Shown: one piece after another, positions 83-53,244 of the stretch
Numbering within the stretch: the first letter of the stretch is position 1
How the letters are laid out: each line of letters begins with the position of its first letter
Source: Scenedesmus sp. PABB004
Taxonomy: Eukaryota
Assembly: GCA_014905635.1 (NCBI GenBank)
Contig: JABVCE010000020.1
Coordinates: forward strand, 558,001-622,000
Reading direction: 5' to 3'
Length of the DNA: 64,000 nt
Position numbers and translations under genes: made by a program
Notes under the pieces: model-generated
Databases searched by the model: none
What the model saw: the letters and a program-made list of their open reading frames with translations, nothing else
Told to the model about the DNA's origin: nothing

Positions 83-1366
83 ATGCAGGCGCTCGCTGCG
101 TACCAGAGGGCCGCCGCCGCGGCCGCGGCGGGCGCGGACGCCGAGTACGCCGCGCGCGTCAAGGCGCTGACAAAGGCGGTCGGCCGGCGCGCCTCGACGG
201 CGGCCAAGGTCGCCAAGTCAAAGGCGCGCGACCGCGCGGCCGCAGGGGGACGCGCGGGCGCTGCGGCGCGGCGCCGCCGCAGCAGCAGCGGCGGCGCGAG
301 CCCCGCCCGCCGCCCGGCCGCGCCGCGCAGGCGCGGCACTCGCCTGCCGAGGCGGCGGCGCTGGAGTGGGCGGAGGCCAAGTGCGCGTACGCGCTCGAGC
401 GCGCGCGCGACGAGGGCACAGGCTTTGCGCCCGAGCTCCACTTCCTGCAAGGTGCGCGCCGGCGCAGGCGCTGGTGCTGGCCGGCGTGCCGCGCCAGCGC
501 CGGCGCGTGCTGCAGCGGCGCGGCCGCCCGAGCCGGCGCCGCGGCGCGCGCCGCCCGCGCAGGCCGCGGCACCAGCGGCGGCGGCGCCGCCGCCGCCAGC
601 GGCGAGGTCGCCGTGCGCGCGGCGCGCGCGTTTGACGCGCCGGAGGTGCTCGCGGAGTTCGTCGGCCAGGTTTGTGCGCCCGGGGGCAGGCTGGCGAGCG
701 CCGGCGAAGCGGGCGCGCCGTGCTGCCGCGCTCCCTTGCCCGACGCACGCGCCGCCGCGCCCGCGCCCGCGCCCGCCCCGCCAGATGCGCAGCAAGGCGG
801 AGGAGCTGGGCGCGCGGGCCGTGCTGCTCATCGCGCCCAAGCAGGCCGTGGCGTTCCCGCAGGCGCGGCTCCGCGCGCCCGCGGCCGGCCGCCTGGCGCA
901 GCTGCTCGCGGCCGGGCGGCGCGCGGGCGCGCCGACCGCGCCGCGCCGCGCCGCCCGCCCGCCGACGCGCGCCCGCTGTGCGTCCGCGTGTGCAGACGTG
1001 GCGCCGCGCCGACTGGCCGTTTGCCGCGCACGACGGCGTGTTTGTGCAGCTGCAGGCGACGGTCGCGGCGGCGCCGGCAGACAGCGCGGGCGGGCGGCCC
1101 GACCAGGCGGCCAAGGGCGCGGGCGAGGGCAGCAGCGTGCTGCGCCGCGTGTGGTTCATTCGCATGCGCGACGGCAAGCCCCCGCTGTGAGCGCCGCCGC
1201 AGCGCTCAGGCCGGGCGCGACTGCCCTGGGCGGCACCGCGCGGCGGCGCGCCGCGCCAGCCGCGCGCCTCACCGCCGCCCGCCGCGGCGCGCCTGCCGCC
1301 GCTGCCCGCAGGGAGGCGCAGGAGGTGGGCCAGGAGTTCGAGCTGCTGCCGCTGGTTCTGAAGTGA
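83..1366 (+). CDS. Spliced hypothetical protein; may begin upstream of the window
   Basis: Protein-like exons in different frames (EWAEAKCAYALERARDEGTGFAPELHFLQ; MRSKAEELGARAVLLIAPKQAVAFPQ; TWRRADWPFAAHDGVFVQLQ; EAQEVGQEFELLPLVLK*) are bounded by GT/GC..AG introns, with TGTAA just downstream of the stop. Family not recognised. Confidence 0.65.
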   Translation: MQALAAYQRAAAAAAAGADAEYAARVKALTKAVGRRASTAAKVAKSKARDRAAAGGRAGAAARRRRSSSGGASPARRPAAPRRRGTRLPRRRRWSGRRPSARTRSSARATRAQALRPSSTSCKVRAGAGAGAGRRAAPAPARAAAARPPEPAPRRAPPAQAAAPAAAAPPPPAARSPCARRARLTRRRCSRSSSARFVRPGAGWRAPAKRARRAAALPCPTHAPPRPRPRPPRQMRSKAEELGARAVLLIAPKQAVAFPQARLRAPAAGRLAQLLAAGRRAGAPTAPRRAARPPTRARCASACADVAPRRLAVCRARRRVCAAAGDGRGGAGRQRGRAARPGGQGRGRGQQRAAPRVVHSHARRQAPAVSAAAALRPGATALGGTARRRAAPAARLTAARRGAPAAAARREAQEVGQEFELLPLVLK

Positions 1367-1387
1367 CGCGGCGGCGGGCGCGTGTGT

Positions 1388-1392
1388 TGTAA
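1388..1392 (+). promoter_or_regulatory. Chlorophyte-type poly(A) signal TGTAA
   Basis: TGTAA lies 22 nt after the stop at 1366. UGUAA is the established Chlamydomonas near-upstream element. Confidence 0.5.
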
Positions 1393-1871: not shown

Positions 1872-3133
1872 TCACGCGGCGCGCCGCCGCGTCGCCTCGC
1901 TCGCGCCGGCGTCGCGCGCGATCGCGCGCGCGATGTGGCGGCCGAGGCTGTCGTAGCCGGTCTCGGTCATGTGCAGGCCGTCGTCGAGCCACTGCCCGCG
2001 CGTGGCGTCGTCCATCGCGTAAAAGTCCATCGGCCCCGCCTGCAGGTCCAGCACCGTGATCGACGGCCCGCCCGGGCGGCGCGCGTTCTGCTCCGCCGCG
2101 ACCGCGGCGATGAGGCCCGCCAGCTTCTTGCGCTCGCTCTCCTTGTAGTCGTCCCTGCGGCGGCGGGGGGGGGGGGGGGGGGGGGCGGCGACGTGAGCGC
2201 GCGCGAGCCGCGGCGGCGAGCCCCGCGGCGCCGCGGCGGCCGGCCGGCTGCCGGGGCCCCGGCGCCCCGGGGCGCAGCGCCCGGCTGGCGCGGCGGCGCG
2301 ACGCGGCGCGCACTTTGAGACGAAGCCGGGCGCGGCGAAGGGCGGGATCGCGAGCACGCGCGCGCCCGAGTCGAGCGCGAGCTCGTAGATCTTCACCAGC
2401 CCGCCCTTGACGTCCTCGGCCGACCGGCCCTGCGGCGCGCGCGGGGCGCGTCAGGCCGCACGCCGCGCCGGCTGCTCGCGCCGCCCGCGCCGGGGGCGCG
2501 GCCGGGCCAGTCGGGGGCGCCTCGCGCCGCCCGCGCCGGCGCCAGACTTTGACTTTGAAGCGAGTCAAATTTGACTCACCTCGCGGAGGAGGTCGTTGAT
2601 GCCGAGCATGACGATGACGTAATCGTACGGCCGGCTGCGCCGCCTGCTCGCCTGGATCGCGCGCTCCGCGACGGGGATGATGGTGGTCGGGTTGTGGAAG
2701 CCCACTGCAAAGATGCCCGCGCCGCCCACGCCTGCGCCGGCGCGGCGGCGGCGCGCGCGCGCGCGGGTCAGCGCGCGGGTCAGCGGCGCGGCCGGCCGTG
2801 ACGGCGTTGCGAGCCGGAGGAGGCGCGGGCGCCGCCGCCGCGGCGCGCCCGGCGGCCTCCATGCTGTGCCCGGCGGGCGGGCGGGCGGCCTCGGGCGGGC
2901 GCGGGCGCACCCTCGTTATCGATGAAGACGCGCGTGCTGGGCAGGCGGCGGCGCAGCTGCTTCTCGAGCTCCAGCGTGTACGGGTGGTTCAGGTTCTTGC
3001 TCGGCACGCTGCCCTCGGTGATGGAGTCGCCCAGGGAGAGGATGCGCAGCTGGTCGCGCTGCATGCGCGCCGCCGAGGCGCACGCCGCGCACGCGGCGAG
3101 CAGCGCGAGCGCGAGGCACGTGGCGCGCGCCAT
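1872..3133 (-). CDS. Secreted SGNH/GDSL hydrolase (paralog 1), about 4 exons
   Basis: Signal peptide MARATCLALALLAACAACASA; block I LGDSIT; block II GVGG; block III MLGINDLL; block V DDGLHMTETGY. The 3' end is uncertain because the stop overlaps a possible GTGAG donor. Confidence 0.9.
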
Positions 3134-6301: not shown

Positions 6302-6302
<1 letters not shown>

Positions 6303-6339
<37 letters not shown>

Positions 6340-6340
6340 G

Positions 6341-6373
<33 letters not shown>
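6303..6373. repeat. (GCT)n/(CAG)n trinucleotide microsatellite, interrupted
   Basis: Direct reading of the sequence. It could encode polyQ or polyA in a possible extra 3' exon of the SGNH paralog 2 gene. Confidence 0.9.
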
Positions 6374-6374
<1 letters not shown>

Positions 6375-6756: not shown

Positions 6757-8914
6757 TCACGGCTTGACGGCGCCCGCGTGCGCGGCCGCCGCGGCGGCGG
6801 CGGCGGCGGCGGCGCCCGCCGCGGCGGCGGCGGCCTCGCGGCGCGCGCGCGCGCGCGGCCCGCCGAGCGTCGCGCCGACGACGTACTGCGCGACGTCGAG
6901 CACCGACGGCGGCGGCAACTCACACAGGTGCTTTGCCAGCTCCTGGTAAACATATGCGCCGAGTGCATCATAGGCAAACTCTGTCATGTGCAGGCCATCG
7001 TCGAGCCAGCGCGCGCGCTCGTCCGGCGACATCGCGTAAAAGTCCATGGGGCCGGCCTGCGGCGCGGCGCGGCGGCGCGCGGTGGGGCGCGGCGGCGGCG
7101 GCGGCGGCGCGAGCGGCGCGCGGGCGGGGGTGCCGGCAGCGCGCGGTGCGCGCCTGCAGGTCCAGCACCCAGATCTGGGGGCCCTGCCCGCTGGTGAGCG
7201 CCGCGCGCGCCGCGGCCGCCGCGTGGAGCAGGCCCGCCAGCTTCCTGCGCTCCGCCTCCTTGGCGTCGCCCCTGCGCCGCGGGGGCGGGCGGGCGGGGGG
7301 CGGGGCGCCGCTCGGCCGCGGGCGCGCGGCCGGCGCTGCCAGCTCTGCGGGCGCTCGCAGCCTGCGCTGCACGTGCGCGACGCCGCCGCGCCGCCGCCCC
7401 GCGTGGGCGCCCGCGCACGCGGCGGCGCGCACTGCGAGACGAAGCCGGGCGCGGCAAAGGGTGGGATGGCAATGACTGGGATGCCTTTCTCAAGCACATC
7501 ATCAAGCAGCGGCTGCAGGCCGGCCATGATGTCTGCCGCAGGGCTGCCGCCGCGCAGGAGGTCGTTGATGCCGATCGACACGACCACCGCGCCCCACGCC
7601 CTGCGCGGCGGCGGCGGCGGCCGCGGCGGCGCGCGCGGCGCGAGCGGGCGCTCGGGCGCGCGCGGACGAGCGGCGTGCCCGGTCCCACGCCGCCCTCAGG
7701 CCAGCCCGCCGCCGGCCCGCCGGCCCGCCGGCCCGCCGCGCCTGCTGGCGAGCTGCTCTTGGAAATAGGGCCCGAAGGTCTTGGGGATGGTGAACCCCGT
7801 CTGGAAGATGCCGCCGCCGCCGAGGCCTGCCGGCGCGGGCGAGCGCGCGGGCGTGGCGCCGCGTCGGCCGCGCCGTCGGCCGCGTCGGCCCTGCGCGCGC
7901 GCCCGCCGCCCTTCGCGCGCGGCGCCCGAGCCGAAAAGGGCGCGTGCGCGCACCCGCGTCGACGACGCTGACGCGGCTCGTCGCGAGGTTGGCCTTGAGC
8001 AGCTCCTCCACCTTCCAGGCGTACGGGTGATTGGTCATCTTGCTCGGCACGCTGCCCTGGGTGATGGAGTCGCCCGCGGCGAGTACATTGAAGGGCCGGC
8101 CGCGGCTGATGGGGATGCAGAAGCCGCCGGCGGCGGCGGCGGAGGACGGCGCCGCCGCGGCGGCGGGGCCCGCCTCGGGCGCCGCGGGCGGCGCCGCGGC
8201 CGGCGCCGGCGCGGGCTCGGCGGCGGGCGCCGCGGCGGCGACCGCGACGGCCGCGCCGTCGGCGCCGCCGCGGGCCGCGCGGCGCGTGGCGCCGCGCCCC
8301 GCGCGGCGCGCCGGCACCGGCGCCGCCGCGGGCGCGGGCGCGAGCGCGGGGCCGCCCCCGGCCGGCGCGGCCGTGCGCTGGCCCGACGCGCGGCCCGCCG
8401 CGGGCTTGGCCTGCGCCGCCTGCGCCGCCGCGAGCGCCGCCGGGTCGAGGGGCGTGTACACGCTGCTGCCGGCGCCGAGCGCCGCGCCGGCGCCGCCCCA
8501 GACGAGCGGCGCGGCGCCGGCGCCGGCGCCGGCGGTGCCGACGCCGGCGGCGGCCGCCGCGACGTACGCGGCGCCCCCCGCGGCGGGGTAGGTGTACGTG
8601 TAGGTGGGGCCGGTGGTGTAGGTGTAGGTGGTCACCCAGGGCAGCTGCGCCAGCCGCCTGCGCGCGACGCCGGCCGGGACCAGCTGGCGCCGGAGGTTCG
8701 CGCTGCCTCCCGCGGCCAGGAGCGGCCCGTCAGCCGATCCGGGCGGGGCGTTCACGCCTCCGGCTCTTCCGGAAGGCTCCGCGCCGTGCGTCGTGGCGCG
8801 GTGCGCGCCCTGCGCGCCGCCAGGGTGCGCTGGCAGCGCGTGGCATGCCGCGCCCGCGCAGGCCAGGGCCAGCACCAGCAGGCCCGCGCCGGCGCTCCAC
8901 GCCCGGCGCGCCAT
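6757..8914 (-). CDS. Secreted SGNH/GDSL hydrolase (paralog 2) with long Ala/Pro-rich N-terminal extension
   Basis: Signal peptide; AAGDSITQGSVPSKMTNHPY; GLGGGGIF; SIGINDLL; IPPFAAPGFVS; WLDDGLHMTEFAY. Clearly paralogous to 1872-3133. The stop at 6757 overlaps GTGAG, so another 3' exon is possible. Confidence 0.9.
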
Positions 8915-9725: not shown

Positions 9726-12296
9726 TCACATCCACTCCAGCACATACTGCGGGACGCCGTCCTCCTCCTCCTCCTCCTCCGCCGCCTCCGCCTCCTCCAC
9801 CTCCTGCGCCGGCTGCGGCGCCCGCGCCGCGCCGCGCCACGCGGCCGCGCCGCGCGCCGGCACGGGCGGCGCGGGGGCAGGTCGGGGCCGCGCAGCGCGC
9901 TGCGCGGCGCCGGCGGCGCCGACGCGGCGACGTCGGGGCAGCCGCCGCCGCCGCCGCCCTCCTGCTCTGCCGCAAAGTTCGCAAACACGCGCCGGTCGAG
10001 CGCCGCCTCGTCGTCGCCGCCCTCCGACAGCCGCGGCAGGCCGCGCCGCGCCGCGGGCGCGGGCGCCGCCGCCGCGGGCGCCGCCGCGGGCGCGGGCGCG
10101 GCCCCGGCGGCGAGCTTGGCGGCGCCGGGGCCGGCCGCCGGCTCCCAGCGCTCCGTGAGGGCGTCGAGCGCGGCGTAGAGCAAGCCCGCCGCGGGCGGCT
10201 GCGGCACGGAGCAGTCGACGAGCAGCGCGCGCGCGGGCGCTGGGAAGCCGTAGAAGCGGCGGTTCAGCGCGGCGCGCGCGACCATGACGCTGCCCTGCAG
10301 GCCCACGCCCGCAAACGCGCCGCGGCTGACCGACCAGCCGACCACGCCGCCGCGCGCCGCGGGCAGCCCGCCGACGCGCAGCGAGGCCTCGGCGCTGCGC
10401 CCGAGCGGCCCGAGCGCGAGCCCGGCCGCGCCGCCGAGGCCGAGCGTCGCGCCAGCCGCAAACGCGCGCACGGCCTCGTCGGTGCGCAGCACGAGCAGCA
10501 CGTCGGTCAGGTCGCCGCCGAGCTGCAGGCCCCAGCCGAGGCCGTACGCCGCGGCCGCGCACGGCGCCGACCACGCGCCGCTGCGCTGCCGCGACACGAC
10601 GACGCCTGCGGCGCGGCGCGGCGCGGTGCGGCGCGGGTGGGCGGCCGCCCCCTGCCAGGTCCCCGCCCGCCGCCGCGCGGCCGCGGCGCGCGCCCAGCCG
10701 GCTCGAGGCAGAGCGCGCCCACCCGTGCCGGCGGTGCACGACCAGCCCGCGCCGACCCGCGCGACGCTGAGGATGGCCAGCCCCTTGGCGCCCGCCAGCA
10801 GCGACGCCGGCAGGCCGCGCTCCGCCTCCAGCCGGAAGGTCTGCGCGGGCGCGGCGGGTGCGGCAGGCCGGCGGGGCACGCACACTGAGCGCGCCGGCGC
10901 GCGCTGCCGCACGCCACGGCGCCGCCGCCGCCACCGCCGCGTCGTCTGCCGCGCCTGGTTGAAGGTGCGGATGATGTTTGAGGCCTTGTACACCTCCGCC
11001 GCCATGTCGCCGCCCCAGGGGCTGTTCAGCCAGCTGCGCAGGCTGACGGCGTCGAGCGCGTCGTGCACCGGCGGCTGCACGCTCGCCGCCGCTGCGCCGA
11101 CCAGGAACGCCTGCAGCGGCTCCAGCAGGCCCGCGCACATGTCGCACACGCGCTGCGGGTCCCTTTGAGAAAGGCGGGCGCGGCGGCGGCGGCGGCGGCG
11201 GCGCGCGGCGGCGGCGCGGCGCGCGCGTCGGCGGCGGCGCGCGGCGCGGCGCGCGTGACGGCGGCGGCGCGCGCCGGGCGCGCTGCGCAGCGCGCGCGGG
11301 GCGCCGCCGCTCACCGCTCCTTGAACCGGGGCGGCAGCAGCAGCTGCCGCGCGGAGCAGGCGTGGCAGAAGAGCCGGCCGCAGAGGCGGCAGTGGTGGCG
11401 CAGCCGCATCAGCGGCTTGAACGGCTGCATGCAGTTCCCGCAGTGGCTGGCATAGCTGTCGGGCAGCCACTGCGGCGGCTCCAGCCGCAGCACGTCGCGC
11501 TGCGGGCCGCCCGGCGCGCTCTGGGGCAGCCCCGGGTGCGCGTGGAGCGGCGCGGCGTGGTGCTGCTGCAGGCCGCCGCCCGTGTGCCGGCCGCCCGCGA
11601 CGTCGCCCGCGCGCACGCCGCCCGCGCCGACGCCCGCCGGCAGCGCCGGCGCGCTCGGGCCGCCGCCGTCGTCGTCGCCGCCGCTGTAGCTCGCCAGCAG
11701 CGCGGCGAGCGGCGCCGCGGCACGCTGGACCTCGTGCGCGTAGTGCTCCGCGGTGGCCGAGGCGGTGGGGAAGGCCTCCCAGCCCTCCTCCTTGGTCTGC
11801 GGCGGCGGCCGGCGGCGGCAGCCGGCGGCGTCGGCTGCGCCGGCGCAGCGGGGCGCGCCCCGCCGCAGAGCAGGGCCGAAGAAACAGGGCGTGCGCGCGC
11901 GGGGCGGGCCGCCGCCCTAAACCCTAACCCCGCGCACCGTGTCGTCCATGAAGGCGGCGGTGGCGAGCGCGATGAGGTCTTTGAGCTCGTGGTTGGTCGC
12001 GAGCGCGGCGCGCGCGTCAAACGGCGCGCGGCAGAGCGGGCAGCACGCGCCGCGCGCCTGCACCGCGCCGAAGCAGTCGCGGCAGCCGTTGTGCCCTGCG
12101 CGGCGCGGGGCGCGGTTGCGGGGTCGGCGTCGGCGGCGCGGCGCGGGCGCGGCACTGGCGCTGGCACGTGCTCCGCGGCGCCGGGCGGCGCACCGCAGGG
12201 CAGCGTGGACGGTCCGCCGTTGCGGCCGAGCAGGTCGCAGCAGACGGGGCAGATGGGGAGCTCGCCGCTCGCGGCAAGCTTGACCGGGCCCGCCAT
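9726..12296 (-). CDS. RING + FYVE + SYLF (Ysc84/DUF500) domain protein, similar to plant CFS1/FYVE2
   Basis: RING CPVC..LPCGHNGCRDC..CPLCR; FYVE WLPDSYASHCGNC..RHHCRLCGRLFCHACS..RVCDMC; SYLF AKGLAIL..GAGWSCTAGTG..WSAPCA..GWGLQLGG..SRGAFAGVGLQG. The last exon needs a frame correction near 9875. Confidence 0.9.
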
Positions 12297-13668: not shown

Positions 13669-13732
<64 letters not shown>

Positions 13733-14266: not shown

Positions 14267-14298
<32 letters not shown>

Positions 14299-16846: not shown

Positions 16847-18147
16847 ATGGCCGACGACGGCGAGGAGGACGCGGAGCTGGCGGCGCTGCTGGACGACGAG
16901 CTGTTCGGGGGCGGCCTGGGCGAGCAGGGCGGCGGCAGCGGCGGCGCAGCAGCGGAGTGCGGCGGCGGCGCCGACCCCAGCGCGGCGCCCGCCGACGGCG
17001 AGCAGGCGGCCAAGCGCGCCCGGCGGGAGGCGGGCGAGCCGCCGGCGGATGAGCCGGCGCAGTGCCCGCCGCACCCGGGCTGGTGGATGGGCCTCTGCAT
17101 CCGCTGCGGCGCGCCGCGCAGCGCCGACGAGGCGACGCCGCCCGGCGGGGGCGGCACGCCGCCGCGCGGCGGCGCTTCCCGCCCCGACGCCACCACCACG
17201 ATCAAGCACCTCCACGCGCGCTCGGCGCTCGAGGTGTCGGCCGACGAGGCCGCGCGCGTCGCGAGCGGCGCCGTGCAGCGCCTGCTCGCGAGCCGGCGGC
17301 TCGTGCTGGTGCTCGACCTCGACCACACGCTGCTCAACACGGTGCGCGACGCGGACCTGGTCGGCGAGGAGCGCGCGCTCGCGGTCGCGTACCTGCAGCG
17401 CCAACACGCGCAGCTCGCGGCGCGCGCGGCGCAGCGACAGGGCGGCGCCGCGGCGGCGGCGCCGGGCGAGGCGCAGCCGCAGCAGCCGGGCGGCGAGGCG
17501 CAGCAGCCGCCGCAGCAGCCGGGCGAGGGGCAGCAGCCGCAGCAGCCGCCGGGCGGCGAGCAGCAGCAGCCGCAGGCGCCGGGCGGCGAGCGGGCGCCGC
17601 TGCCGCCGCTCGCGCTGCCGGCGGGGCGGCCGCGGCTGTACCACCTGGCCGACCGCGGGCTGTGGACGAAGCTGCGCCCCGGCGTGGAGGCGTTCCTGTC
17701 CGCCGCCGCGCCGCTCGCGGAGCTCCACATTTACACGATGGGCGACAAGGGCTACGCCCGGCTCATGGCCGACCTGCTTGACCCCGAGCACCGCCTCTTT
17801 GTCGGCCGCGTCGTCTCGGCGGTGCGCCGCGCACGTGCAACACCGCGCGTGTGCACGTGCAACACCGCGCGCGCACGCGCCGCGGACGCGCACGCGCGCC
17901 GCGGGGAGGTCTGCGGGGGTGCCGACGCCGCGGCGCCTGCGCCGACGCCGCCGCAGAGCGACAGCACGCGCGCGGGCGTCAAGGACCTGGACGTGCTGCT
18001 CGCCGACGAGTCCCTCGTGCTCATCCTGGACGACACCGAGCACGTGTGGGAGAAGCACCGCGCCAACCTCGTGCAGGCGCGCGTGGGCGCGCGGCCGCCC
18101 GCCGCCGCGCGCGCCGGGAGCGCGCCCGCCGCGGCGTGCGCCGCGCG

Positions 18148-18178
<31 letters not shown>

Positions 18179-18470
18179 TCGCCGCGCGGCGCCCGCCCGC
18201 CCGCCCGCCCGCCCAGGTGGAGCGCTACCACTTTTTCGGCTCGAGCGCGCGGCTCTTCCACCCCGGCTGCGCGAGCCCGCTCGAGGCCGGCCGCGACGAG
18301 CCCGAGGCCGGCGGCGTGCTCGACACCGCGGCCGCGCTGCTGTCGCGCATCCACCGCCGCATGTTTGGCCCGCCGCCGGACGGCGCGGGCGCGCAGCCGG
18401 AGCAGCAGCCGGAGCAGCAGCCGGAGCCGGCGGCGGCGGGCGAGCAGCAGCAGGCAGAGCCGGAGCAGCT

Positions 18471-18503
<33 letters not shown>

Positions 18504-18528
18504 CGAGCAGCAGCAGCAGCAGCAGCCC

Positions 18529-18594
<66 letters not shown>

Positions 18595-25218: not shown

Positions 25219-27800
25219 GGCCGGTGAGGAAGGCGTCGAGCTGGGCGTAAAACTCCAGCATGACCGTGTGGTCGAGGTGCCGCGCCGTGCGGCGCAGCGG
25301 CAGCTTGGCGCACTTCCACGTCTGCACGACGTCGGGCACCTGCGGCGCGCACGGGCGGGGGCGGGGCGGGCGACTGAGCGGCGGCGCGCGCGCGCGCGTA
25401 CCCCCGAGCGCAGCGCGCGCTGCCTCAAAAGCTGCATCACGCAGAAACATGACAAACGAAACGCTCGTGACACCTAAACACGCGCCTTCTCGTCGCTATA
25501 GTGCAGGAACGCGCCAAAGAGGTTGCTGAACGTCTCCATCAGCTCGCCGCGCTCCGCGCCGCGGAACGGAAACTCCTTCAGCTGCCACGCCTTGCCCTGG
25601 GGTTGAGGAGGCGCGCGCGGCGCGCGGCGCGAGGCGCGCAGGGGGGTGGGCGGCGGCACCCGTGGCGCGGGCGCGCGCAGCCGGCGCGCGGCGCGCCGCG
25701 CCTGGCGCTCGCCCGGCCGGCGCGCGCGCGGACCTGCAGGATGACCGCGACGACGCGCTGCCAGTCGGGGTGGCCCGCCTTGGGTACCTTGTCCGTGATC
25801 TGGTAGCTGCGGCGACGCGTAGGGCGGCGCGGAGCGGGGCGCGGCGTCGGCCCGGGCGGACACGCATCTGCGCACACGCAGCGGCGCGGGCCGCGCGCGG
25901 CGGCGGCGGCGCGCACCGCGGGAAGCGCGGCCCCGTCCGCAGCGCGGTGCGGTTGAACTCCAGCGCCTTGGCCGGCTTGACCCCGCCTGCCGCCGCCGCG
26001 GCCTCGTCGCTGCGCGCGCGCGCGCGGCGCGGCGTCGACGGCGGCGGCGTCGGCAGCGCCGGCAGCGCCGGCGCGAGCAGATTCAGACTCACATTCACAC
26101 GCCGTGCACGCACGCGCGAGCAAACCTCCCCACCCACCTGCGCACGAAGCGGCCCTCCTCGAGGAACTGCTTGGCGTTGAAGATGTTGACCATCGCCGTC
26201 ACGCCGTTTGGCACGAGGATGATCGGCGGCCCGCTGCGCTGCCGCCCGCCCGCGCCGCCGCCGCCGGCGCCGGCGCCGCCGCCCGCCGCGGCCTTGTGCG
26301 ACGCGCTGCCCGGCCGGCCGCCGCTGCCCGGCCGGCTGCCGCCGCTGCCCGGCCGCCCGCCCGCCGGCGCCGGCGCCGGCGCGGGCGCGCCGCCGGCGGC
26401 CGCCGCTGCGGCCGGGCGCCTGCTGGCGGGCGCCGCGCCGCCGATGCCGTAGCCGAGCTGGCCGACCACCGCCGCGTCGGCGCCGATCGCCCCGACGTCC
26501 TGCTCGCGCTCCATGCGGCCGGAGGGCTTCATGAAGGCTGGGGCCGCCTGGGCGCGGGGCAGCGCCCGCGCGGCGGTGCGGTGCGGGGCGGCGGTGAGCG
26601 CGGGCGGGAGGGACGGCTGTGCGCGCGGGCGGACGCGGGGCGCCCCGGTCGCGCACCTTTTGCTGCTGCTGCGCCGCCGCCGCCCGGCCGCCGCCGCCCT
26701 TGCCGCCGCTGCCGCCCGCGGCCGGCTTGGCCGCCGCCGCGGCGTCGAGCGTCTTGCGCGCGGCCAGGACCTGGTGGGTGTGCGACGGTGGGTGCGCGTG
26801 TGCGTGAGAGAGCGTCCAGGCGGCGGCGCGGGTGCGGGCGGCAAGCAGCGGGCGCGCGCGCGACCCACCTTGTCCAGCATCTCAAGGACGGGCTTGAAGT
26901 TGGCGCCCGGCGCGCACTGCACGCGGTGGCGGCGGCGGCGTGCGGGCGAGGGTCAGCCGGCCGCCACGTCGCTGGCGCGGGCACCGCCAGCCACCGCGCG
27001 GGCGCGCGGGGCGCACCAGGAGCGAGTTGCGGTCGCGCAGCTGCTTCTCCTGCTCAAAGAGGTGCTTCAGCGCCGCGGCCTCGCCCTCGCTTGGCTCTGC
27101 ACGCGCGCCCCGCGGCGGGCGCGGCGCGTGGGCGCGCCGCGCCGCTGCCGCCTGCCGCGCCGGCGGGGGGCACTAGCAGCGTCGGCGCCGCCGCCCTGTC
27201 GCCCTGCCGCCGCTGCGCCGCGGCGCCGCGCACCCTCGACGCGCTGCTTCTTGGCCGCCGGCTCGTCAAAGTGCGCGGTCGGGACGACGTCGGCGATGTG
27301 GTTGGTGTGGCTGAGCTTGCCGGTCAGGTAGTCTCGCAGCGCCTGCGCCGGGCGGGCGGGCGGGCGGGCGGGCGGGGGGGCGCGAGCCTGGGCTCACGCA
27401 ATGCCGGGCGCGCGCGCCCGCTGCACGCCGCCGCTGCCCGCCGCCGCTGCGCGCCGCGGGCTCTCGCCGCTGCCGCGCCGCCGCGCCGCGCGCCGCCAAG
27501 CGCGCGCCGCCGCCGCCGCCGCCGCGCCTCGCGGTCCTTGAGGTCGATCTGCCCCGTCTTGCTGCGGATGGCGGCGGCGACGTACTGGCCCATGTTGTTG
27601 TTGGAGGTGATGGCCTTGATGAAAAAGGCGACCGCCGCGAGGCTGTAGTGGTCGCCCGCGCCATCCTTTGCCCGGAACGCCGTCGGCGCCGCCTTTGGGA
27701 AGCTGTACTTGTCGCTGAAGCGCACGCGGTCGCCCTCGAGCGAGACCTGGTCGAGCTGGCCGGCCAGGCAGTACTCCTTGAGGATCGCGAGCGGGTCCAT
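25196..27800 (-). CDS. CDC73: CDC73/parafibromin (PAF1 complex subunit), about 9 exons
   Basis: MDPLAILKEY..RVRFSDKYSFPK; DRE-ALRDYLTG; PIILVPNGVTAMVNIFNAKQFLEEGRF; DWQRVVAVILQGKAWQLKEFPF; RHLD..FYAQLDAFL. Confidence 0.95.

Positions 27801-30649: not shown

Positions 30650-30696
<47 letters not shown>
30650..30696. repeat. (TGCG)n tetranucleotide microsatellite
   Basis: About 12 units read directly, downstream of the 30558 stop. Confidence 0.95.
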
Positions 30697-34000: not shown

Positions 34001-35905
34001 TGCTGCCCAAGTCGGGGGAGGGCTTTGAGATCCCCTTTGGCGCGTGCGTGTGGGCGACCGGCATCGCGATGAACCCGCTGGTCAAGCAGCTGCAAGAGCT
34101 CTTCCCCGACGAGCAGACGCACTTCAGGCGCGCCGCGGCGCGGCCGCGCGATGCGCCGCGCGATGCGCCGCGCGATGCTGATGCGGCGCTGCGCGGGAGG
34201 GGGCGGCGGCAGCCTGGGCTGCGGGGAGAGGGAGGGGAGCGTCCGAGGCTGGCCGCGCGCACACGCCGCGCGCGGCGGCCGCACGCGCGCATCGTGTCCC
34301 ACGCGGCGCGCGGCGCGCAGGTCGGTGCTGACGGACGACCACCTGCGCGTGAAGGGCGCGGACGGCAGCATCTGGGCGTTTGGCGACGCCGCGACGATCG
34401 ACCAGCCGCGCGCGCTGCAGCGCGCGGACGAGCTCTTCGAGGCCGCCGACGTGGACAAGGTGCGGTGCGCAGGCCGCGCGGCGCGGCGCGCGGGCGCGGG
34501 GGCGCGACTGCGGGGCGGGCGGAGGGTCAAACGTGGTGCGCGTGGCCGCGGCGCGCCCGCCCTCACCTGCCCCGCGCGCGCCGCGCCGCGCGCCGCGGCG
34601 GCGCAGAACGGCACCGTGTCGCTGGGCGAGCTGCAGGCGATGCTGCGCGAGGCGAGCAAGGAGTTCAGCCACCTGGAGGAGCACGCGCGCTTCCTGGAGG
34701 CAAAGAACAACAGGTGCGAGGCTGTTGCTTTGACTGGAAGATAACACATGTTGTTTCTTGTGTTATTGCTTTGCTACTCTCGCCAGCGCCGCGCCGCCGG
34801 CCCCGCTCTGATCAGCCCGCGCCCCGGCTGCCGCGTACGCCGCGGCCAGGTTTGGCGGCCTGCTGCGCCGCGTGATGGACTCGGGCGCCGGCGGCAGCGG
34901 CGGCGCGTCGGTCATGGCCACGGTGGAGGAGAGTGACGAGCTGAGCAAGGAGCAATTTAGGGAGTTGTTGGCGAAGGTCGACAGCGGCCTGCGCGCGCTG
35001 CCCGCGACGGCGCAGGCGCGGCGCGGCGCGCGGCGCTGGGCGCGGCGCGGCGCGCGGCGCTGGGGCGCGGCGCGGCGCGCGGCGCTGGGGCGCGGCGCGG
35101 CGCGCGGCCCGCGCTCCGCGCGCGCGCGCCCGGCCCGTGTCGCCCCGGCCGGCGGCGCCGGCGTGTCCGCCGACAGCCGCGCTGCCTGCTCGGCGGCCGC
35201 CGCCTGCGCGCGCAGGTCGCGAAGCAGCAGGGCGAGTACCTGGCGAAGGTGCTCACGCGCGGCAGCTTTGACGCCGCCGCGGGCCGCGTGGCGCTCGCGC
35301 CGGGGCAGGCCGCGTTCAAGTACAACCACAAGGGCTCCCTGGTGCGCACCGCGCCCGTGCCGCCGCTGCGCCCGCGCCCACGGGCCGCCGCGCCCACAGG
35401 CCGCCGCGTTCGCGCCTCGCCGCGCTCCCTCGCCCGCGCTCCACGCTCCCTCGCCTCCCTCTCTCTCATCCTCACTCTCTCTCTCACTCTCTCTCGCTCT
35501 CCCTCTCTCTGTTTCACTCTCCCTCCCCCTCTTCCTGGCCCCCCGCAGGCGTACGTGGGCGGCGACAAGGCGGTCATGGACATCCCCCGCATGGGCCCCA
35601 TCATGGGCCAGCAGGCGGGCCTGCTCTGGAAGGGCTACGAGACGTTCGCCCAGATCTCCCTGCGCAACCAGCTCCTCGTCTTTAACGACTGGGTGCGCGG
35701 CGGGGGGGCTGGGAGGTTGTTTTTTAAAGTTTTTATAGGGTTTAGGCTTTGAAAAGGGTTCAGGGCCAAAGGTCGAGCTTTGAGGGCTGCCGCCCACGGC
35801 GGCGCGCGGGGCGGGCGAGCGCGGCGCTGACATGGCACGCCGCCGCCACTCCCCTCCCGGCAGGTGCGCACCAAGATCTTCGGCCGTGACATCAGCAGGG
35901 TGTGA
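31011..35905 (+). CDS. NDA2: Type II NAD(P)H dehydrogenase with EF-hand (Chlamydomonas Nda2 / plant NDB-like), intron-rich, probably plastid-targeted
   Basis: VVVLGSGWAS; SPRNYFLYTPLLP; VCGGGPTGVEVAAEL; IELMDYVLSTYDR; CVWATG; IWAFGDAA; EF-hand DVDKNGTVSLGE; LPATAQVAKQQG; FKYNHKGSLAYVG; C-terminus FGRDISRV*. Confidence 0.95.
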
Positions 35906-36133: not shown

Positions 36134-37251
36134 TCACGCGTTCGCCGCCGCGCCGTCGGCGGCCGTGTCATAGCCGTCGCCCGCTGCGCCGCCGCCACTG
36201 CCGCCGCCGCCGTGCTTGCCTCCCTTCACGCCCACGCCGGTGGGCAGCAGCAGGTCGTCCACGACGTGCACGACGGACGCGCCGGCGACGACGTCCGGCC
36301 CGACCGCCCGCGCCTTGTTCGTCGCGCCTGGCGCGGCGGCGGCGGCACGGCAGGCGGGGCGGCGCGTGTGGGTGTGGGTGTGGGTGCGTGCACGCTCGCT
36401 GCTGAACCTTTCAACCCCCGCGCACCGATGAACTTCAGGCTGGGCGTGGCGCGCCGCGAGCCATCACTGTGCTTGGTCTTGATCTGCGCCAGCGTCACGG
36501 CGGCGATAGGCGCGCCACACGCGCGCACGGGGCTGTCGGCGCCGCGTGGCGCGCGTGTGGCACGGCCAGGCGCGCGCGCGCGCGGGCGCGCCTGGACGAC
36601 CAGCGGCGCGGCGCCGGCGAGCGCGGTGGTGAGGGTCATGCCGTCGGTGAGCTGCGCCGAGGTCAACGCCGCGGACCGGATGACGTGATAGCTCAGCACC
36701 TGGGCACGCGGCGGCGGACGTTGACCGCAGGTGTGAGGGCCGCGGAGAGTCGGGCGGAGAGGGGCAGGGCCGCCGGTGCGCAGCGCGCAGCATGCGGAGC
36801 ACACGCGCCGCGCGCGCCAGCCACGCACGCACGCCAGCGCGCGCGCCTGCAGCAGCAGCGTGCGGTTGGCGAGCAGCGCGGCGGGCGTGGCGCCGAGGTC
36901 CTCCGACAGCCGCGACGCAAAGGCCGCGTCGGTGGGCGCGAGGATTGTCCACGCGCAGTCGCTCGAGTTGAGCAGCGCGGACGTGCTTGAGGTCAGGCCC
37001 GCCGCGTCGAGCGCCGCGAGCAACGTGGCCATGCCCGACGTCTCATTGGCGGCCGCGATCGCGGCCGCCAGGCTGGAGAAGCGGCGGGTCGCGTTGGCGC
37101 CGCCCCCGCCGCCGACCGGCGGGTTCATCGCAGCGGCAGGGCCTGCCTGCGCCAGCCGGCGCGGGGCGCCCGGCGGCGCGGCCGCGGCCGCCCAGAGCGC
37201 GGCGGCGGCGAGGGCGAGCCCGAGCGTGCTGGCGGAGCGGCGGCGCGGCAT
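36134..37251 (-). CDS. Secreted single-FAS1 (fasciclin) protein, AstaP (astaxanthin-binding protein)-like, 4 exons
   Basis: Signal peptide; H1 WTILAPTDAAF; VLSYHVI; H2 AGASVVHVVDDLLLP; N-glycosylation sequons NAT, NET, NSS, NRT. Confidence 0.9.
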
Positions 37252-37531: not shown

Positions 37532-39174
37532 ATGCACGCCGCCCGCGCCGCCGCCGCCGCTGCGGCTGCACTGCTCGGCCTCGCCCTGGCGGCCCTGGCC
37601 GTCGAGGGCGCGCCGCTGCAGGGCGGACCCTGCGCCGGCGGCTCCTGCGCGAGCGCCGCCGCCGCGCCGCAGCTGCCCGCGCCGCCGCCGGGGCAGCGCC
37701 GGCTGCGCCAGTGGGGCACGGGCTTCGCGGGCTGTGAGTGCCGGCTGGCGCAGGCGACGGGCCCCGGGCGCGCCGATGCCCGCGCGCGCCGGGGCGGCGG
37801 CGGGACGTGGACCGCGCGCCGGCCGCGCTGCCCACGCCCGCCCGCGCGCGCAGGCGCCGGCCGGCCGCTCGTGATCGCGCACGGCGCGACGCCGCCGACC
37901 AACATCGACGACCTCGTGGAGGACATGCAGAGCCCGCTGACAAAAGTCGACGTGCGGCGGCGGCCGGCGGCGCCCGGCGCTCGGCGCGCGCCGCTCCTTT
38001 GCCGCACGCTTACAAGAGCACGCGCGCGCACACGCACGCACGCACGCGCCGCCGCCGCAGATCACGTCCAACGCCAACTTCCAGATGACGGTCAAGCCCG
38101 ACGCAGTGGAGCTTATCTCGCTGACCGACCCGGCCGCGTGCATCCGCGGCCTCACGACCGTGCGCGGCGCGCTCGCCATCTACGACGACGGGTCCATCCC
38201 CGACCTCTCAGCGCTCTCACGCCTGCGCACGGTGCAGGTGCGGGCACCGCCTCGCTGAGCCCCCTCGCGCTGATATCACGCGCGGGCCCTGCCCCGCCGA
38301 CCCCCGCCACCGATCTGCCGCGGCCGCCGCTGCTGTGTGTGCTGCGTGGCGGCAGGGACCGCTCTTCATCTACGGCGCGCGCGGCAACAGCAGCCTCACC
38401 AGCCTGGCAGGACTGGAGAGCCTGCAGGCACGCGCCGCGCCGCGCCGCGCCGCGCCGCGCCACGCCGCGCCGCGCCGGCCTGTCCCTTTGACATGCTGCC
38501 GCGCCCGTCGACGCTGCCACCACCGCGCCGCGCCGCGCGCCGCCGCCGCCGCGCGCCACGCGCGCAGTCGGTCGCGGGGCTGAACATCGCCCACATGCGC
38601 CTGCTCACCTCGCTGGAGCCCCTGTCCGGCCTCACCATCAACCAGGGCGACCTGGTGGTCCTGGACAACGCCAACATCACCTCCCTGGCCGGCGTGGGCT
38701 CGCCGACGCAGCTCTACGGCCGCGTGTGGCTCGACAGCAACCCCCTCCTGCGAGACCTGCGCGGCCTGGAGGCGCGGCGCGCCGCGCCGCGGCGGCCAGC
38801 CAGCAGCGGCGCGGGCCCGGCGGCTGCGCGCCCGGTCCTGCGCGCGCGTGCGCCGTGCGCTGCGCCGCCGCTGACGCCGCCGCCGCCGCCGCCGCCGCGC
38901 TGCGACCGCCCCGCAGGCGCTCACGACGGTGGACGGCGACGTCAGCATTCGCAACATGCCCAACCTCACCTCGCTGGCCGGCCTCGGCGGCCTCGTGAGC
39001 ACCGGGCGCGAGCTGGCGCTGGTCTCGCTGCCCAACCTCACCTCGACCGCGGCGCTCACCAACCTCACCTCCGTCGGTGCGGCGGACGCGGACGCGGCCG
39101 CGGCCGCAGCGGCGGCTGCGCGGCGCGCGGCGCACTGCCGCGGGGCGCCGCTGGGCGGCCGCTGAACCGCCGCC

Positions 39175-39237
<63 letters not shown>

Positions 39238-40370
39238 ACGCTCGCGCACGGGCAGGCCTGAGCCTCGAGCTGACGGAGCTGCCGGCGCTGCGCGACCTCG
39301 CAGGCCTGCGCCGCCTCAGGTCCGTGCCGGGCGACCTGATACTGTACCGACTCAAGACGCTGCCCACCCTGCGCGACCTCGCCGCGCTGCAGGCGCGCGC
39401 GCGCGGCTCGGCCGCGCCGCGCCGCGCGGCGCACCGGCGGCGGCGCGCGCTGGCCGGCCAGGCGGCCGGAGCGCGGGCACCGCCCTACGCGCGCGTGCGC
39501 CGCGCCCGCCGCGCCCGCCGCGTCCGCCGCGCCCGCCGCTGCAGTCTGTGGGGCTCAACCTGATCATTGGTGACGACGGCCAGCTCACCACGCTGGAGGG
39601 CCTGGGTGAGGAGGGCGCGGCGCGCCGCGGCGCGACGCGACCGCCGTCCCCGCTCGAGCCCGCGCCGCGGCCGGGGCGGCGCCGCCGCCGCAGAGAACGT
39701 GCGGTCCGTAGGCACGCTGCTGTCGGTGAGCTTCAACCCCAAGCTCACCAGCCTCAAGGTGACAGGAGCGACACGGCCAGAGCGGGGCGCCCGTTCGCCC
39801 GCGCACCCACCGCCCCAGCCGCGCGCGCCGAGCCGCCGCGCCGCCGCCGCTCGCACGCGCCCCGCTCCGCGCCGCCGCGCAGGGGCTGGGCGGGCTGCAG
39901 AGCATCGGCGAGGACCTGGTCGTGCGCGGCAATGGCGCGCTGATCACGCTCAGCGACCTGCCGCGCGCGCTGCGCGTGGTCGGGGCGCTGCGCGGCGGCG
40001 ACGTGTGGATCGAGGACAACCCGCAGCTCTCCTCGCTTGGGGGCTCGGCGCGGCAGCGCTGCAGGCGGTGCACGGCCACGTGACGGTCGCGCGGAACGCG
40101 CCGGCGCTGCCGGGCGGCGAGGCCGACGCGCTGCGCGCGCTCGCGGCGCCGCTGGTCATGACGCCTGCGCTCCTGCGCGGCGGCGTGGCAGCGGTGGCGG
40201 GGGCCAACGCCACCGCCCCGGCGGCGGCGGCCAACACGACCGCGCCAGCGGTGCCGGCGGCGGCGGCCAACGCGACCGCGCCGGCGGTGCAGGCGGCGGC
40301 GGCCAACGCGAGCGCGCCGGCGGCGCGGGGCGTGGCGGTTAACACGACCGCGCCAGCGGCTGCGGGCTGA
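37532..40370 (+). CDS. Secreted receptor L-domain repeat protein with Ala-rich N-glycosylated tail, about 10 exons; apparent frameshift near 40040
   Basis: Signal peptide; about 11 repeats of the type L..V.G.L.I..N..LTSL.GL (e.g. LTTVDGDVSIRNMPNLTSLAGL, LQSIGEDLVVRGNGALITL); tail with repeated NAT/NTT/NAS. Confidence 0.85.
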
Positions 40371-49172: not shown

Positions 49173-49566
49173 CGGCTCGCGGCGCGCCAGCTGCTGTTTT
49201 TGCGCGCGAGCGCGTCGCGGCGGCAGCTGGGAGCGACGGACCGGCGCCGGCCGGCCGCAGGGCGGCGGCGTTTCGTCGTGCGGACCGCTGGAGACTGAAT
49301 TCCACTGGCGGCGGTGAAGCCCGGCGTATTCGCACTCAACCGCCGCCGTCACATCGCTCGGGGGGCTCCGCTGCTGTCCGAAAGCAGCTCCCCGCCCGAG
49401 CGTTGTGCGAAAGCAGCTTTCGCGGCGGCTCCCGTGCACGCCCTCCCCCCGATCCCAGCGCGCCGCCGCGGCACCCGCAGCAGCGCCGCAGCAGCAGCGC
49501 CGCAGCAGCAGCGCCGCAGCAGCAGCGCCCCGGCAAGCCGCAGCTGCTAGCAGCAGCGCCGCCGCG

Positions 49567-50617
49567 ATGGACCTGGCCGTGATCCTGCCGCTGGCGGCGC
49601 TGCTGCTGCTGCAGGCCCTGTTCTCGCTGCTGCTGCTCGCGCCGCGCGCGATTTCGAAGCACGCCGCGGCGGCGCTCGGCCAGGCGCGGTCGTCGCCGGT
49701 CGTATCGACAGTTCTCTCAACGCTCGCGGTTGCGGTCGCCGCCATGACCGGCGCGGCGCTGCTGCAGCTGCTCGGCGTGCGGCAGAGCATCGCGGCGAGC
49801 CAGTTCGGGGACAGGGCGATGGCCTTGACCGTGGAGGAGCTGCGCGCGCTGCTCGCCGTCGTGCTGGGACTCAGCAACCTCGTCGTCCTCTACCTCAACC
49901 GCTCGCTCGCCGCCGAGCAGCAGGCGGCAGACAAGGCCGCGCTCAACCTGGCGGTGCTGCAGAAGCAGGTCGGGGGCTGCCCTGGTCGGGGGCTGCCCTG
50001 AGGGCCCGCCCGCGCCCGCGCGCCGCGCCACGGTGGCGCGCGACGCGCGACGCGCGACGCGCGCCCCGCGCGGCGCGCGCGCCGCCGCCGGCGCGCAGGT
50101 CAAGGGCCTGCAGTCGGAGTACATGCGCGCGACGAGCGCGCCCAACGGCGGGGCGGCGGCCGCGCGCGACGGCGCCGGCGGCGCCAAGGGCGAGGTCAGC
50201 AAGCTCATCGCCGACAAGCACAGGCGCGCGGCGCCCGCCACCTTGCCAGCCGTTCCGGTCCACGCGGGGCCGGCGCGGCAGGGCCGCCGCCGCCGAGCGG
50301 CCCACGTCCCGCGCCGCGCCGCGCGCAGGCTGCAGGAGGCGCTCGAGGCAGCGCAGGCCGACGCCGCGGCGGCGGCCAAGGGCGTCGGCGCGCTGCGCGC
50401 GCAGTCGCAGGCGCGCGCCCCGCGCGCGCGCGCCCCGTGCGCGCGCGGCCGCCCCGCGCCTCCTGCTGACGCCGCCGCCGCGCCCGCCTCGCTCGCCACC
50501 CAGGGCCTCGAGCGCGAGTACGACCGCCTGCTGGCGGAGAACGACGAGCTCAAGCGGCGCCTCTCGCGCGCGGGCGACCCGCAGTACGCGCGCGGCGTGG
50601 ACAAGAAGAGCGCGTGA
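49567..50617 (+). CDS. BAP31/BAP29-like ER membrane protein, 4 exons
   Basis: Three N-terminal TM helices; coiled coil LQKQVKGLQSEY..ALRAQSQGLEREYDRLLAEN; C-terminal KKxx ER retrieval signal (DKKSA*). Confidence 0.9.
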
Positions 50618-50918
50618 GCGTGGGCGTTGATCCGTGTGAGCGTGCGAGCGCTTCAAGAAAAACCCTGAGCCCTGCGGCGGGTGCGGGCGAGCGCCCCAAC
50701 GCGCGCGGCGATGGGGGCCGGGGGCCGTCCCGCCGCCCGCCCATCGTGCCGCCGGCAGCGGGGCCAGCGCACGCGCCTCCCTCTTTGCGCCGCACGCGCG
50801 CGCCGACGACGCGCCGCCGCTGCCACTCCTGCCGCTTGTGAGGGCCGCCGCGCACGCCTGCCAGCCTAGCCACGCGCGCCGACTCACGCACGCCCGCCCC
50901 AGCGCATGCGCGGGGGCC

Positions 50919-53244
50919 ATGGGCGCGGAGGGCCAGGGGCAGCAGCAGTGGCCGACCGCGTGGCCGGCGGGCGCCGCGGCGTACAGCGCCCTGGGCGCCG
51001 CAGAGCCAACTGGAGACTCGCTGACGTCACCTGGCCATTGCGGGAGCCATGCGCCCGCTGACGCCCCGCCGGCGCCGCAGCGGCCGCCGCTGCCAGGCGC
51101 CGCTGCCGAAGCCGGGCTCGCGGCCGCAGAGGCCCCGCCGGGCGCGCTGGGCCCGCTGACGCGACTGCAGCGGTGAGCCGCGCGTGATGGGCCTGGTGGC
51201 GACGGCGGCGGCTGCCACCGCCGCGCTTCGCGGCCGCCCGCGGCGCGCCACCGCCGAGCGTCGCGGCCGCCCGCGGCGCGGCCACCCGGCCCGCCGACGG
51301 CCACCCGGCCCGCCGACGGCCCGCCGACGGCCACCGCCCGGCGCCCGCGGCGCGGCCGCCGCAGCGCGCTCTGGGCGTCGGGCTCGGCCTGCATCCTGCT
51401 AGCGGCCTTCACCTTCTCGCTCAGCACACTCTTCGTCAAGCTCACCGCCGGCCGCGTCCCGGTGCGCCGAGCCGAGGCGCTCAGCCGGCCCGCCAGCCGC
51501 GCGCCCCGACGCAGCGCCGCCCGACCGCGCGCCGCCCCGACGCCGGGCCCGCAGGTCCTGCAGATCACGCTGGCGCGCGCGGCGCTCTCCTACGCAGTCA
51601 GCTGGGGTGCGCGCCGCCCGGGCGCCGCCTGCCCGGCCGCCCGCCACCCGCCGCCCACGCGCGCCGCCGCCGCGCGCCGCCGCCACGTGCCGCCCACGCT
51701 CATCGCCGCCGCGCCGCGCCCGCGGCAGGCGTCATCCGCGGCCGGGGGATCACCCCCATGCTGGGGCGCCGCGAGAACATGCCCTGGATGGTCGCCCGCG
51801 GCGTGTTTGGCGCGGTGCGCGCGCGCGCGCGCCGCCGCGCGGCGCAGCTGCCGCCGCGCGGCGCAGCTGCCGCCGCCGCCCGCGCCGCCGCCCGCGGCTC
51901 CGACCTCTGCCGCGGCGCGCCGCCCGCCCCCGGCTCGTCACCAAAACAACAGGTCGCGATGTGCACCTTTTACTTCTCCATTCTGCTGCTGCCGCTCGCC
52001 GACGCGACGCTGCTCTTCTTTCTCAATCCCTCAATCACAGCCGCCGCCGCGTGGGCGATCAGGCGAGGCGCCCTGCGCGCGGCGCGGCGCGCGGCGGGCC
52101 CGCGCCGCGCCGCGCCCGCGCCCACGCCCGCCGCCGGCACGCGCAGGGGCGAGGCGCTGGGGCTGCTCGGCGTCGCCGGCTGCGGCGTGAGCCTCGGCGG
52201 CATGGTGGTGCTGACGCACCCGCCGATGCTCTTCGGCGGCCACGCCGACTGGGGCCCGCAGCGGCTGTGGGGCACGCTGCTCGGCGTCGCCGCGGCGTTC
52301 AACGCCGCCGGCGCGTTCATCAGCATTCGGTGACCAACGCCGCGCCCGCCGCCCGCCGCGCGCCGCGCGCCGCGCCCGCTGTTATGCCGCGTGCCGCGCC
52401 CGCGCGCCACCCACCACGCGCCCCCGCGCCCGCCGCGGCCGGCACAACTGCCGCTGTCGCGCAGCTTTGTGGGCAAGTCCGAGCCGGCCATCGTGCTCGC
52501 GAGTTACTTCCACGGCTCCACCGTGGTGCTCTCGGCCATCTCCATGGCGCTCGGCTGGCCCGACCGCCCGCGCGCCGTCGGCGGCGCCGACGCCGCGCTG
52601 CTGCTCGGCGTCGCGGCGACGAGCTTCGCGGGCCAGCTCCTCCTCACGAGGGGCTTCCAGCTCGAAAAAGCGAGCCGCGCGGCGGGGCTCAACTTCTCGC
52701 AGGCGCGCGCGCGCGCGCGCCGCGGCGGGGGCGCGGCGCGCGCGGCGTCGGCGCCGCCCGCGCGGACGCGCCGACCGCGCCGCGCGGCGCCGCGCGGCGC
52801 GCCGCGCAGGTGGTCTACTCGTGGGCGTTTGGCGTATGGTTTTTCGGGGAGCCCGTGACGCTGTTTGGGCTGGCTGGCACGGCGCTCATCGCGGGCGGCA
52901 TGTGGGCGGTCACCGCGCGGCCGGCCGCCGCGCAGCCCGGCGCCAAGGCCGACGCCGCGCGGCACGCGGCCGGTTTTGGCGCGGGGTCGCGCGTGTTTGC
53001 GCGCGGCGACGGCAGCTTTGCCGCGCGCGCGGCGAGCTTCCAGCGCCTGCTCGCGCGCGACGCCGACGACGGCTCCGGCGACGGCGCGCCGTCCGCTGCG
53101 CTCCCCGCGCTCGTGGAGCTCCAGCAGCCTCGCCAGAGCGAGGAGGACGGCATGGTGGAGGTGCTGCTGCATGACGGCCCGGCGGCGCCGCGCGCGGGCG
53201 CGGGCGGCGCGCTGCCCGGGTTGTGGGCCGCGCCGCACCGCTGA
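50919..53244 (+). CDS. EamA/DMT (SLC35G-like) transporter, about 8 exons
   Basis: SALGVGSACILLAAFTFSLSTLFVKL; WMVARGVFG; LPLADATLLFFLNP; FAGQLLLTRGFQLEKASRAAGLNFSQVVYSWAFGVWFFGE; about 10 TM segments. Confidence 0.9.

Follow-up and report, generated by a model that had tools for sequence, protein, structure and literature searches.

We analysed a 64,000-bp stretch of the genome of the green alga Scenedesmus sp. PABB004 (assembly GCA_014905635.1, contig JABVCE010000020.1, positions 558,001 to 622,000 of the forward strand), referred to here as the window and numbered from its first base, in which an estimated fifth of the introns begin with GC and end with AG (GC-AG introns). GC content is 76-82% across the whole window and 79% overall; the genome is reported to have 78.5% GC, 39.8 Mb and 77 contigs (PMC12571836). 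All six phases are open, and a six-frame scan of the window gives 278 open reading frames (ORFs) of at least 150 amino acids. As six-frame ORFs are uninformative at 79% GC, reading frames were taken from codon periodicity and Pfam matches, and gene ends were difficult to call because stops are rare. Pfam matches place two SGNH/GDSL lipases, GILT, a RING-FYVE-Ysc84 gene, NUDIX, an FCP1-type phosphatase, imidazoleglycerol-phosphate dehydratase, CDC73, NDH-2, fasciclin and CS-domain genes; BAP31-like, EamA-type transporter and leucine-rich-repeat-like (LRR) genes also lie in the window. These genes hold up to 15 introns. Rfam found no RNA families within the window, snRNAs included.

An earlier note on this DNA, made from the sequence alone, had listed 18 introns with a GC donor, each following an exonic AG. 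All 18 coordinates read AG/GC on the strand concerned (11 on the plus strand and 7 on the minus strand; Table 1, in which, as in the text, a slash marks the junction). The donor is AG/GCGCG at 16 of the sites, AG/GCACG at 38428 and AG/GCGAG at 52063. When each junction is slid through its equivalent positions, GC-AG is the only recognised splice pair in 18/18 cases, with no GT-AG or AT-AC. The 18 segments are flat in GC over the three codon positions (0.89/0.87/0.90 for GC1/2/3), compared with 0.72/0.50/0.95 in the flanking exons; the introns, at about 89% GC, are much richer in GC than the first and second codon positions of those exons. Homologous proteins are continuous across 8 of the junctions and a paralog across 1 to 2. 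The extended donor of U12-type introns is of the [AG]TATCCTT type, which is not matched by donors that read GCGCG, GCACG or GCGAG. No introner-like family was found when the 142 ab initio introns were compared all against all, which gave 8 weak low-complexity matches, all below 50 bits. The segments thus look like ordinary U2-type GC-AG spliceosomal introns and, together with the GC-driven origin proposed below, this is likely to be what they are.

Table 1. GC-AG introns and candidate GC-AG introns in the window, with the evidence that places them.
Gene	Intron	Strand	Status	Protein junction	Evidence
Gene at window edge (1-1366)	863..995	+	candidate		ab initio
SGNH/GDSL lipase gene 2	7057..7153	-	intron	VLDLQ/AGPMDF	in-window paralog, exact
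SGNH/GDSL lipase gene 2	7601..7741	-	intron		paralog demands a GC donor
RING-FYVE-Ysc84 gene	10841..10954	-	candidate		ab initio
FCP1-type CTD phosphatase gene	18077..18216	+	candidate		ab initio and Pfam collinearity
CDC73	25340..25485	-	intron		2/2 homologs, including the public PABB004 model
CDC73	27343..27527	-	intron	DRE/ALRDYLTG	2/2 homologs
NDH-2	34128..34320	+	intron	QTHF/R, phase 2	12/12 homologs
NDH-2	35016..35215	+	intron	LPATAQ/VAKQQG, phase 0	12/12 homologs
Fasciclin-domain gene	36484..36591	-	candidate		ab initio and Pfam collinearity
Fasciclin-domain gene	36700..36846	-	candidate		ab initio and Pfam collinearity
LRR-like gene (37776-40370)	38428..38567	+	intron		first of 8 frame-compatible junctions
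LRR-like gene	38772..38916	+	intron		first of 14 candidates, by 8 bits
LRR-like gene	39393..39544	+	intron		second of 16 candidates
BAP31-like gene (49567-50613)	50224..50328	+	intron		6/11 homologs exact; others do not span the junction
BAP31-like gene	50411..50503	+	intron		4/11 homologs exact; 1 more with the same donor and another acceptor; others do not span
EamA-type transporter	52063..52146	+	intron		both full-length homologs (P0032, P0037) of 16 matches
EamA-type transporter	52703..52809	+	intron		3/16 matches span the junction and all agree

The presence of an AG/GC motif is uninformative by itself, so the claim stands on the gene models. These were made with a purpose-written protein-to-DNA spliced aligner, which takes homologs from protein collections and allows a GT or a GC donor with an AG acceptor at equal cost, and with an ab initio parser, trained on NDH-2 and CDC73 alone, in which intron length is bounded and the opposite strand has a state of its own. 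This parser replaced a first gene finder with cheap introns, which had merged the window into a single 354-exon gene. The parser so trained recovered 18/18 of the sites, and forbidding each of them in the parse cost between 3.1 and 19.4 nats. By class of evidence, 8 sites are placed by cross-species homologs, 2 by the SGNH paralog within the window, 3 by the register of the leucine-rich repeats and 5 by the ab initio parse.

The NDH-2 gene has 15 introns, 13 with GT and 2 with GC donors, and forbidding GC donors loses 103-162 alignment points in each of the 12 homologs. A third potential GC donor in this gene, at 34716, was chosen by 1/12 homologs and was rejected, the other 11 taking the GT at 34714. 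CDC73 has 9 introns (7 GT and 2 GC), and with GT donors alone its alignment drops by 73-75 points for the two GC sites together. The public CDC73 protein of Scenedesmus sp. PABB004 is 100% identical over all 484 residues to our spliced model; as that public model uses both GC donors, the deposited annotation already contains GC-AG introns. In the BAP31-like gene 2 of the 3 introns have GC donors and one has GT. The EamA-type transporter, for which the homolog set comprises 16 matches, 2 of them full-length, has GT donors at 51462, 51607, 51815 and 52330 besides its two GC donors. Between these last two genes (50614-51364, plus strand) the ab initio parser joins BAP31-like to the downstream EamA gene through two weak GT introns; homologs of the BAP31-like protein stop at about 50613.

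Two sites lie in the second SGNH/GDSL gene. The paralog reads VLDLQAGPMDF unbroken across the junction made by donor 7153; the GT alternative, at 7168, would remove five residues and has T at +5. For the other intron, the consensus donor 7741 and a second GC donor at 7732 are not separated by the paralog, which scores no worse for 7732. When only GT is allowed, aligning the gene to its paralog costs 78 points and one exon is skipped. Three protein junctions that had been cited as fixed by conserved motifs (LPATAQ/VAKQQG, DRE/ALRDYLTG and VLDLQ/AGPMDF) thus all hold in spliced alignment, the first two to homologs and the third to the SGNH paralog. The two SGNH/GDSL paralogs (1872-3133 and 6870-8098, both on the minus strand) flank the GILT gene; they have two intron positions in common and two others that differ, and the intron at 7057-7153 is absent from the first copy.

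For the LRR-like gene, junctions were ranked with a 24-residue repeat profile built from those of the protein's own repeats that contain no GC junction. All 8 frame-compatible candidates at 38428 are GC donors, and the junction at 38772 yields an exact 24-residue repeat. At 39393 the repeat model puts another GC donor, 39399, ahead by 0.5 bit, and the ab initio parser prefers 39393 by 7.2 nats.

The five sites placed by the ab initio parser vary in strength. Forbidding 863 loses 7.1 nats; the runner-up is another GC donor, at 923, and the GT-only parse skips the exon. The acceptor of this intron has a weak score of 2.5. Forbidding 10954 loses 9.4 nats, and the GT-only alternative, 10912, adds 14 residues. 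Pfam searches with the single exons beside 10954, and with exon 3 of the FCP1-type gene, matched nothing. At 18077, the NIF match in Pfam (profile positions 96-130) reaches the final residue of the exon at 17957-18076, and the parser prefers this donor to 18083, a GT donor in frame that would add 2 residues, by a margin of 6.2 nats. In a PDB search the long ORF of the FCP1-type gene aligns to fission-yeast Fcp1 only as far as the end of exon 1; in that search the glutamine-rich exon 3 gave low-complexity matches alone, and the two short exons gave none at E up to 10. In the same gene a long glutamine-rich tract (18217-19113, plus strand) separates the phosphatase and BRCT parts. In the fasciclin-domain gene, forbidding 36591 loses 9.4 nats, with a poorly scoring GT alternative at 36600, and the exons on either side are collinear with the Fasciclin profile (58-84, then 98-123). 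At 36846 the parser's preference is only 3.1 nats, the competitor being a GT donor in frame at 36828 that would add 6 residues, and the spacing of the Pfam matches (profile 2-42, then 58-84) agrees slightly better with the shorter form made by the GC donor. The existence of in-frame GT alternatives makes 18077 and 36846 the least secure sites.

These alternatives bear on whether the GC donors are modelling artefacts, the transcripts in fact using nearby GT donors, skipping exons or retaining the segments. In-frame GT donors can be named at four sites (18083, 36828, 10912 and 7168), the ab initio finder calls too many GC donors, and retention would often be compatible with the frame, 7/18 segments having lengths divisible by 3, because stops are rare at 79% GC. 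Against this, homologs are continuous over the exact GC-AG junction at 8 sites and GT-only models lose residues there, the top-ranked frame-compatible donors listed for the three LRR junctions are all GC, the segments have no codon periodicity, and the orthologous positions are introns in other algae. We therefore consider it very unlikely that the GC donors are artefacts of this kind.

Among the 39 introns modelled from evidence 10 have GC donors (10/40 when the homolog-supported GT intron at 51462 is counted), a 26% share that is biased upward because these genes were picked for their claimed sites, and the set includes three introns of the first SGNH gene that rest on the ab initio parse and paralog collinearity. 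The whole-window ab initio parse gives 94 GT and 48 GC introns raw (48/142), and 73 GT and 26 GC (26/99) once calls are filtered by site score and by flatness of periodicity; many of the GC calls filtered out sit in a long low-complexity ORF. Set against 10/39 and 26/99, the 18 in about 100 introns (about 1 in 5) counted in the earlier note is a fair figure for this window, and a lower estimate. On these gene models roughly one intron in five in the window, about 17-26%, would be GC-AG, a share far above 1-2% that goes with a genome GC of 78.5%.

Some calls lie outside the 18 sites. Five further AG/GC candidates have site scores equal to those of the confirmed ones: 224-330 (plus strand, in the window-edge gene), 4225-4363 (minus, with 4363 in the GILT gene), 13376-13518 (plus), 53358-53616 (plus) and 58994-59100 (minus). 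The ORF at 43029-49889 on the minus strand (2287 residues) has codon periodicity and no Pfam match; the parser cuts it by many low-scoring, stop-free GC introns with lengths in multiples of three, and these calls are probably false.

The GC and GT donors of the 39 evidence-modelled introns follow one consensus, AG/GYGCGC: G stands at +3 in 36/39 and at +5 in 38/39, C at +4 in 30/39 and at +6 in 25/39, and the acceptor is CAG in all 39. The triplet GCG fills +3 to +5 in 9/10 GC donors and in 20/29 GT donors, so most GT donors read GTGCG, in line with the earlier note. The two classes differ on the exon side: AG precedes 10/10 GC donors and 10/29 GT donors (Fisher p = 4e-4), and thus GC makes up half of the donors with AG before them and is absent from the other 19. 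A stronger exon-side consensus is the usual compensation known for GC donors elsewhere. These data lean against the earlier suggestion that recognition of the 5' splice site is relaxed or adapted: the GC donors are the stricter class on the exon side, and a strict exonic AG speaks for compensation and not for relaxation.

We propose that strong GC-biased substitution pressure would drive T to C at donor position +2, and likewise favour C at +4 and +6, and that the change from GT to GC would survive only at donors that keep the exonic AG (-2/-1) and G at +1, +3 and +5. The GC donors would then be compensated and not specially recognised and, if the change survives only where the other contacts are intact, the splicing machinery is probably standard. 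We rate it as probable that the GC-AG introns of the window are ordinary U2-type introns whose donors were driven to GC and are compensated in this way.

Comparison with other NDH-2 loci bears on this proposal. We scanned metagenome contigs with the NDH-2 alignment, found 64 loci, and counted introns with well-aligned flanks in deduplicated loci. Strictly supported GC donors number 0/61 in loci below 60% GC and 9/66 in loci of at least 60% GC, the window included, and all 9 follow an exonic AG. The share of GC donors rises with GC content (Spearman 0.58, p = 0.003, 24 loci), the loci being phylogenetically non-independent and some of them the same organism sampled repeatedly. Along the GC gradient C at +4 goes from 6/34 through 17/23 to 11/14, and +6 drifts to C along the same gradient. 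Positional homology with GT introns was compared for two introns of the window. Eight distinct loci, of 47-70% GC, have GT at the position of 35016; GC occurs there only in the window and in L045, L047 and L051 (68-70% GC). The intron at 34128 has a GT counterpart in locus L033 with the same position, phase and exon end. GT donors at orthologous introns of less GC-rich relatives fit GC-biased substitution at tolerant donors. In L045 (3305-6399) and L047 (4823-7917), both at about 68-70% GC, most of the well-aligned NDH-2 introns seem to have GC donors, of which the strict filter keeps 2/5 and 2/3, respectively; the GC-rich green alga behind these loci may have an even higher share of GC-AG introns. 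The same loci help to judge whether the true base at +2 is T and the C a mistake of assembly or sequencing. Errors would not take the pattern of at least 18 identical changes that all hit a single functional position, and GC at the orthologous NDH-2 donor recurs in the independent assemblies of L045, L047 and L051, which makes such an error extremely improbable.

The motif itself is less common than expected. AGGCGCG occurs in 78 copies in the window compared with 117 +/- 8.7 in dinucleotide shuffles, and AGGTGCG is not depleted (26 copies, 19 expected). Ab initio donors account for 16/26 copies of AGGTGCG and 20/78 of AGGCGCG. The AGGCGCG depletion may or may not reflect selection against cryptic donors, given strand asymmetries of a general kind in the sense and antisense counts and in control 7-mers.

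Could the splicing machinery instead be adapted, with a changed U1 5' end, U6 ACAGA box or U5 contacts that accept GYGCGC, so that GC donors equal GT donors? Both donor classes here read GYGCGC, with C prevailing at +4 and +6, where canonical U1 would pair with A and U. GC donors, moreover, make up about a fifth of the introns. Changes in snRNAs were raised as a possibility by Irimia and Roy for the GTGCGTG donors of Ostreococcus (PMC2483917). An adapted U1 would nevertheless make the exonic AG unnecessary, and all of the GC donors have it; copies of AGGCGCG on the sense strand go unused; and over unrelated loci +2, +4 and +6 drift to C in step with GC content, as substitution pressure alone predicts. 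Adapted machinery is therefore unlikely. The fuller form of the idea, in which a spliceosome at 78.5% GC has been retuned to GYGCGC (in U1, perhaps with U5 and U6) and stands part-way toward an Emiliania-like majority of GC donors, is equally doubtful; if true, it would offer a natural system for 5' splice-site recognition co-evolving with base composition.

Several points weigh against ordinary, compensated GC-AG introns as the reading of this window, in addition to the upward bias of the 26% share, the makeup of the 39-intron set and the relatedness of the metagenome loci. The parser over-calls GC donors; a GC intron that it placed at 26419 lies inside a CDC73 exon and is contradicted by both homologs. 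Five of the 18 sites have ab initio support alone, and two of these have in-frame GT alternatives (6.2 and 3.1 nats). By the ab initio labels, 12 exonic and 6 intronic copies of AGGCGCG stand unused on the sense strand, so other determinants of splicing must exist. Finally, we infer the splicing itself from the continuity of proteins, and the direction of the change and its cause, whether mutation bias or biased gene conversion, are inferred as well.

GC-AG introns of the U2 type share with those described here the GC donor, the AG acceptor, the extended consensus of the GT class and the stronger exon side. Compensatory signals at human GC 5' splice sites are the subject of PMC3167603. The difference is in frequency: a survey of annotated genomes puts GT-AG at 98.3% for animals, 98.7% for fungi and 97.9% for plants (PMC7072748), about 98% in typical genomes, whereas in this window GC-AG reaches approximately 17-26%; in the same survey the GC content of splice sites correlates weakly with that of the genome. 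Emiliania huxleyi is closer in being a GC-rich protist with a canonical AG acceptor, and its roughly 60% GC donors at 65% genome GC are attributed by the authors to GC content; ab initio models mis-predict junctions there too (PMC4028052). It is, however, a haptophyte with a majority of GC donors at 65% GC, whereas the window comes from a chlorophycean at 78.5% GC and has a majority of GT donors. The magnitude is very similar in Aureococcus anophagefferens and Pelagomonas calceolata, with 14-17% predicted GC-AG introns attributed to high GC, against 0.32% in a relative of lower GC (bioRxiv 10.1101/2024.10.30.620910); these are stramenopiles with few introns per gene, and their figures are genome-wide predictions where ours come from one 64-kb window. 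Ostreococcus lucimarinus is a green alga and its GTGCGTG donors have the GTGCG core seen here, but it is intron-poor and has a rigid branch motif (PMC2483917), unlike the many-intron genes of this window.

The term GC-AG does not occur in Irimia and Roy 2008 (PMC2483917), nor do intron or splice occur in the text of PMC12571836. Our literature search, one part of which was taxon-ranked and weak, brought up no report of a raised GC-AG share for green algae or for this species. The earlier guess that the phenomenon may already be documented therefore holds for other GC-rich algae in print, and the public CDC73 model contains the introns; for green algae and this species no paper came to light. 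The excess of GC donors is real and sizeable in the window, and it is the same phenomenon that has already been published for other GC-rich algae.

A GT-only parse of the window skips exons or adds spurious residues, and gene finders restricted to GT donors would get about one junction in five wrong in this genome and others like it. The series formed by the window and the metagenome loci, in which +2, +4 and +6 drift to C with GC while +1, +5 and the exonic AG hold, would show which 5' splice-site contacts can be lost under mutational pressure. With a green alga joining the haptophyte and stramenopile cases, the effect looks general to extreme GC content and not an oddity of one lineage.

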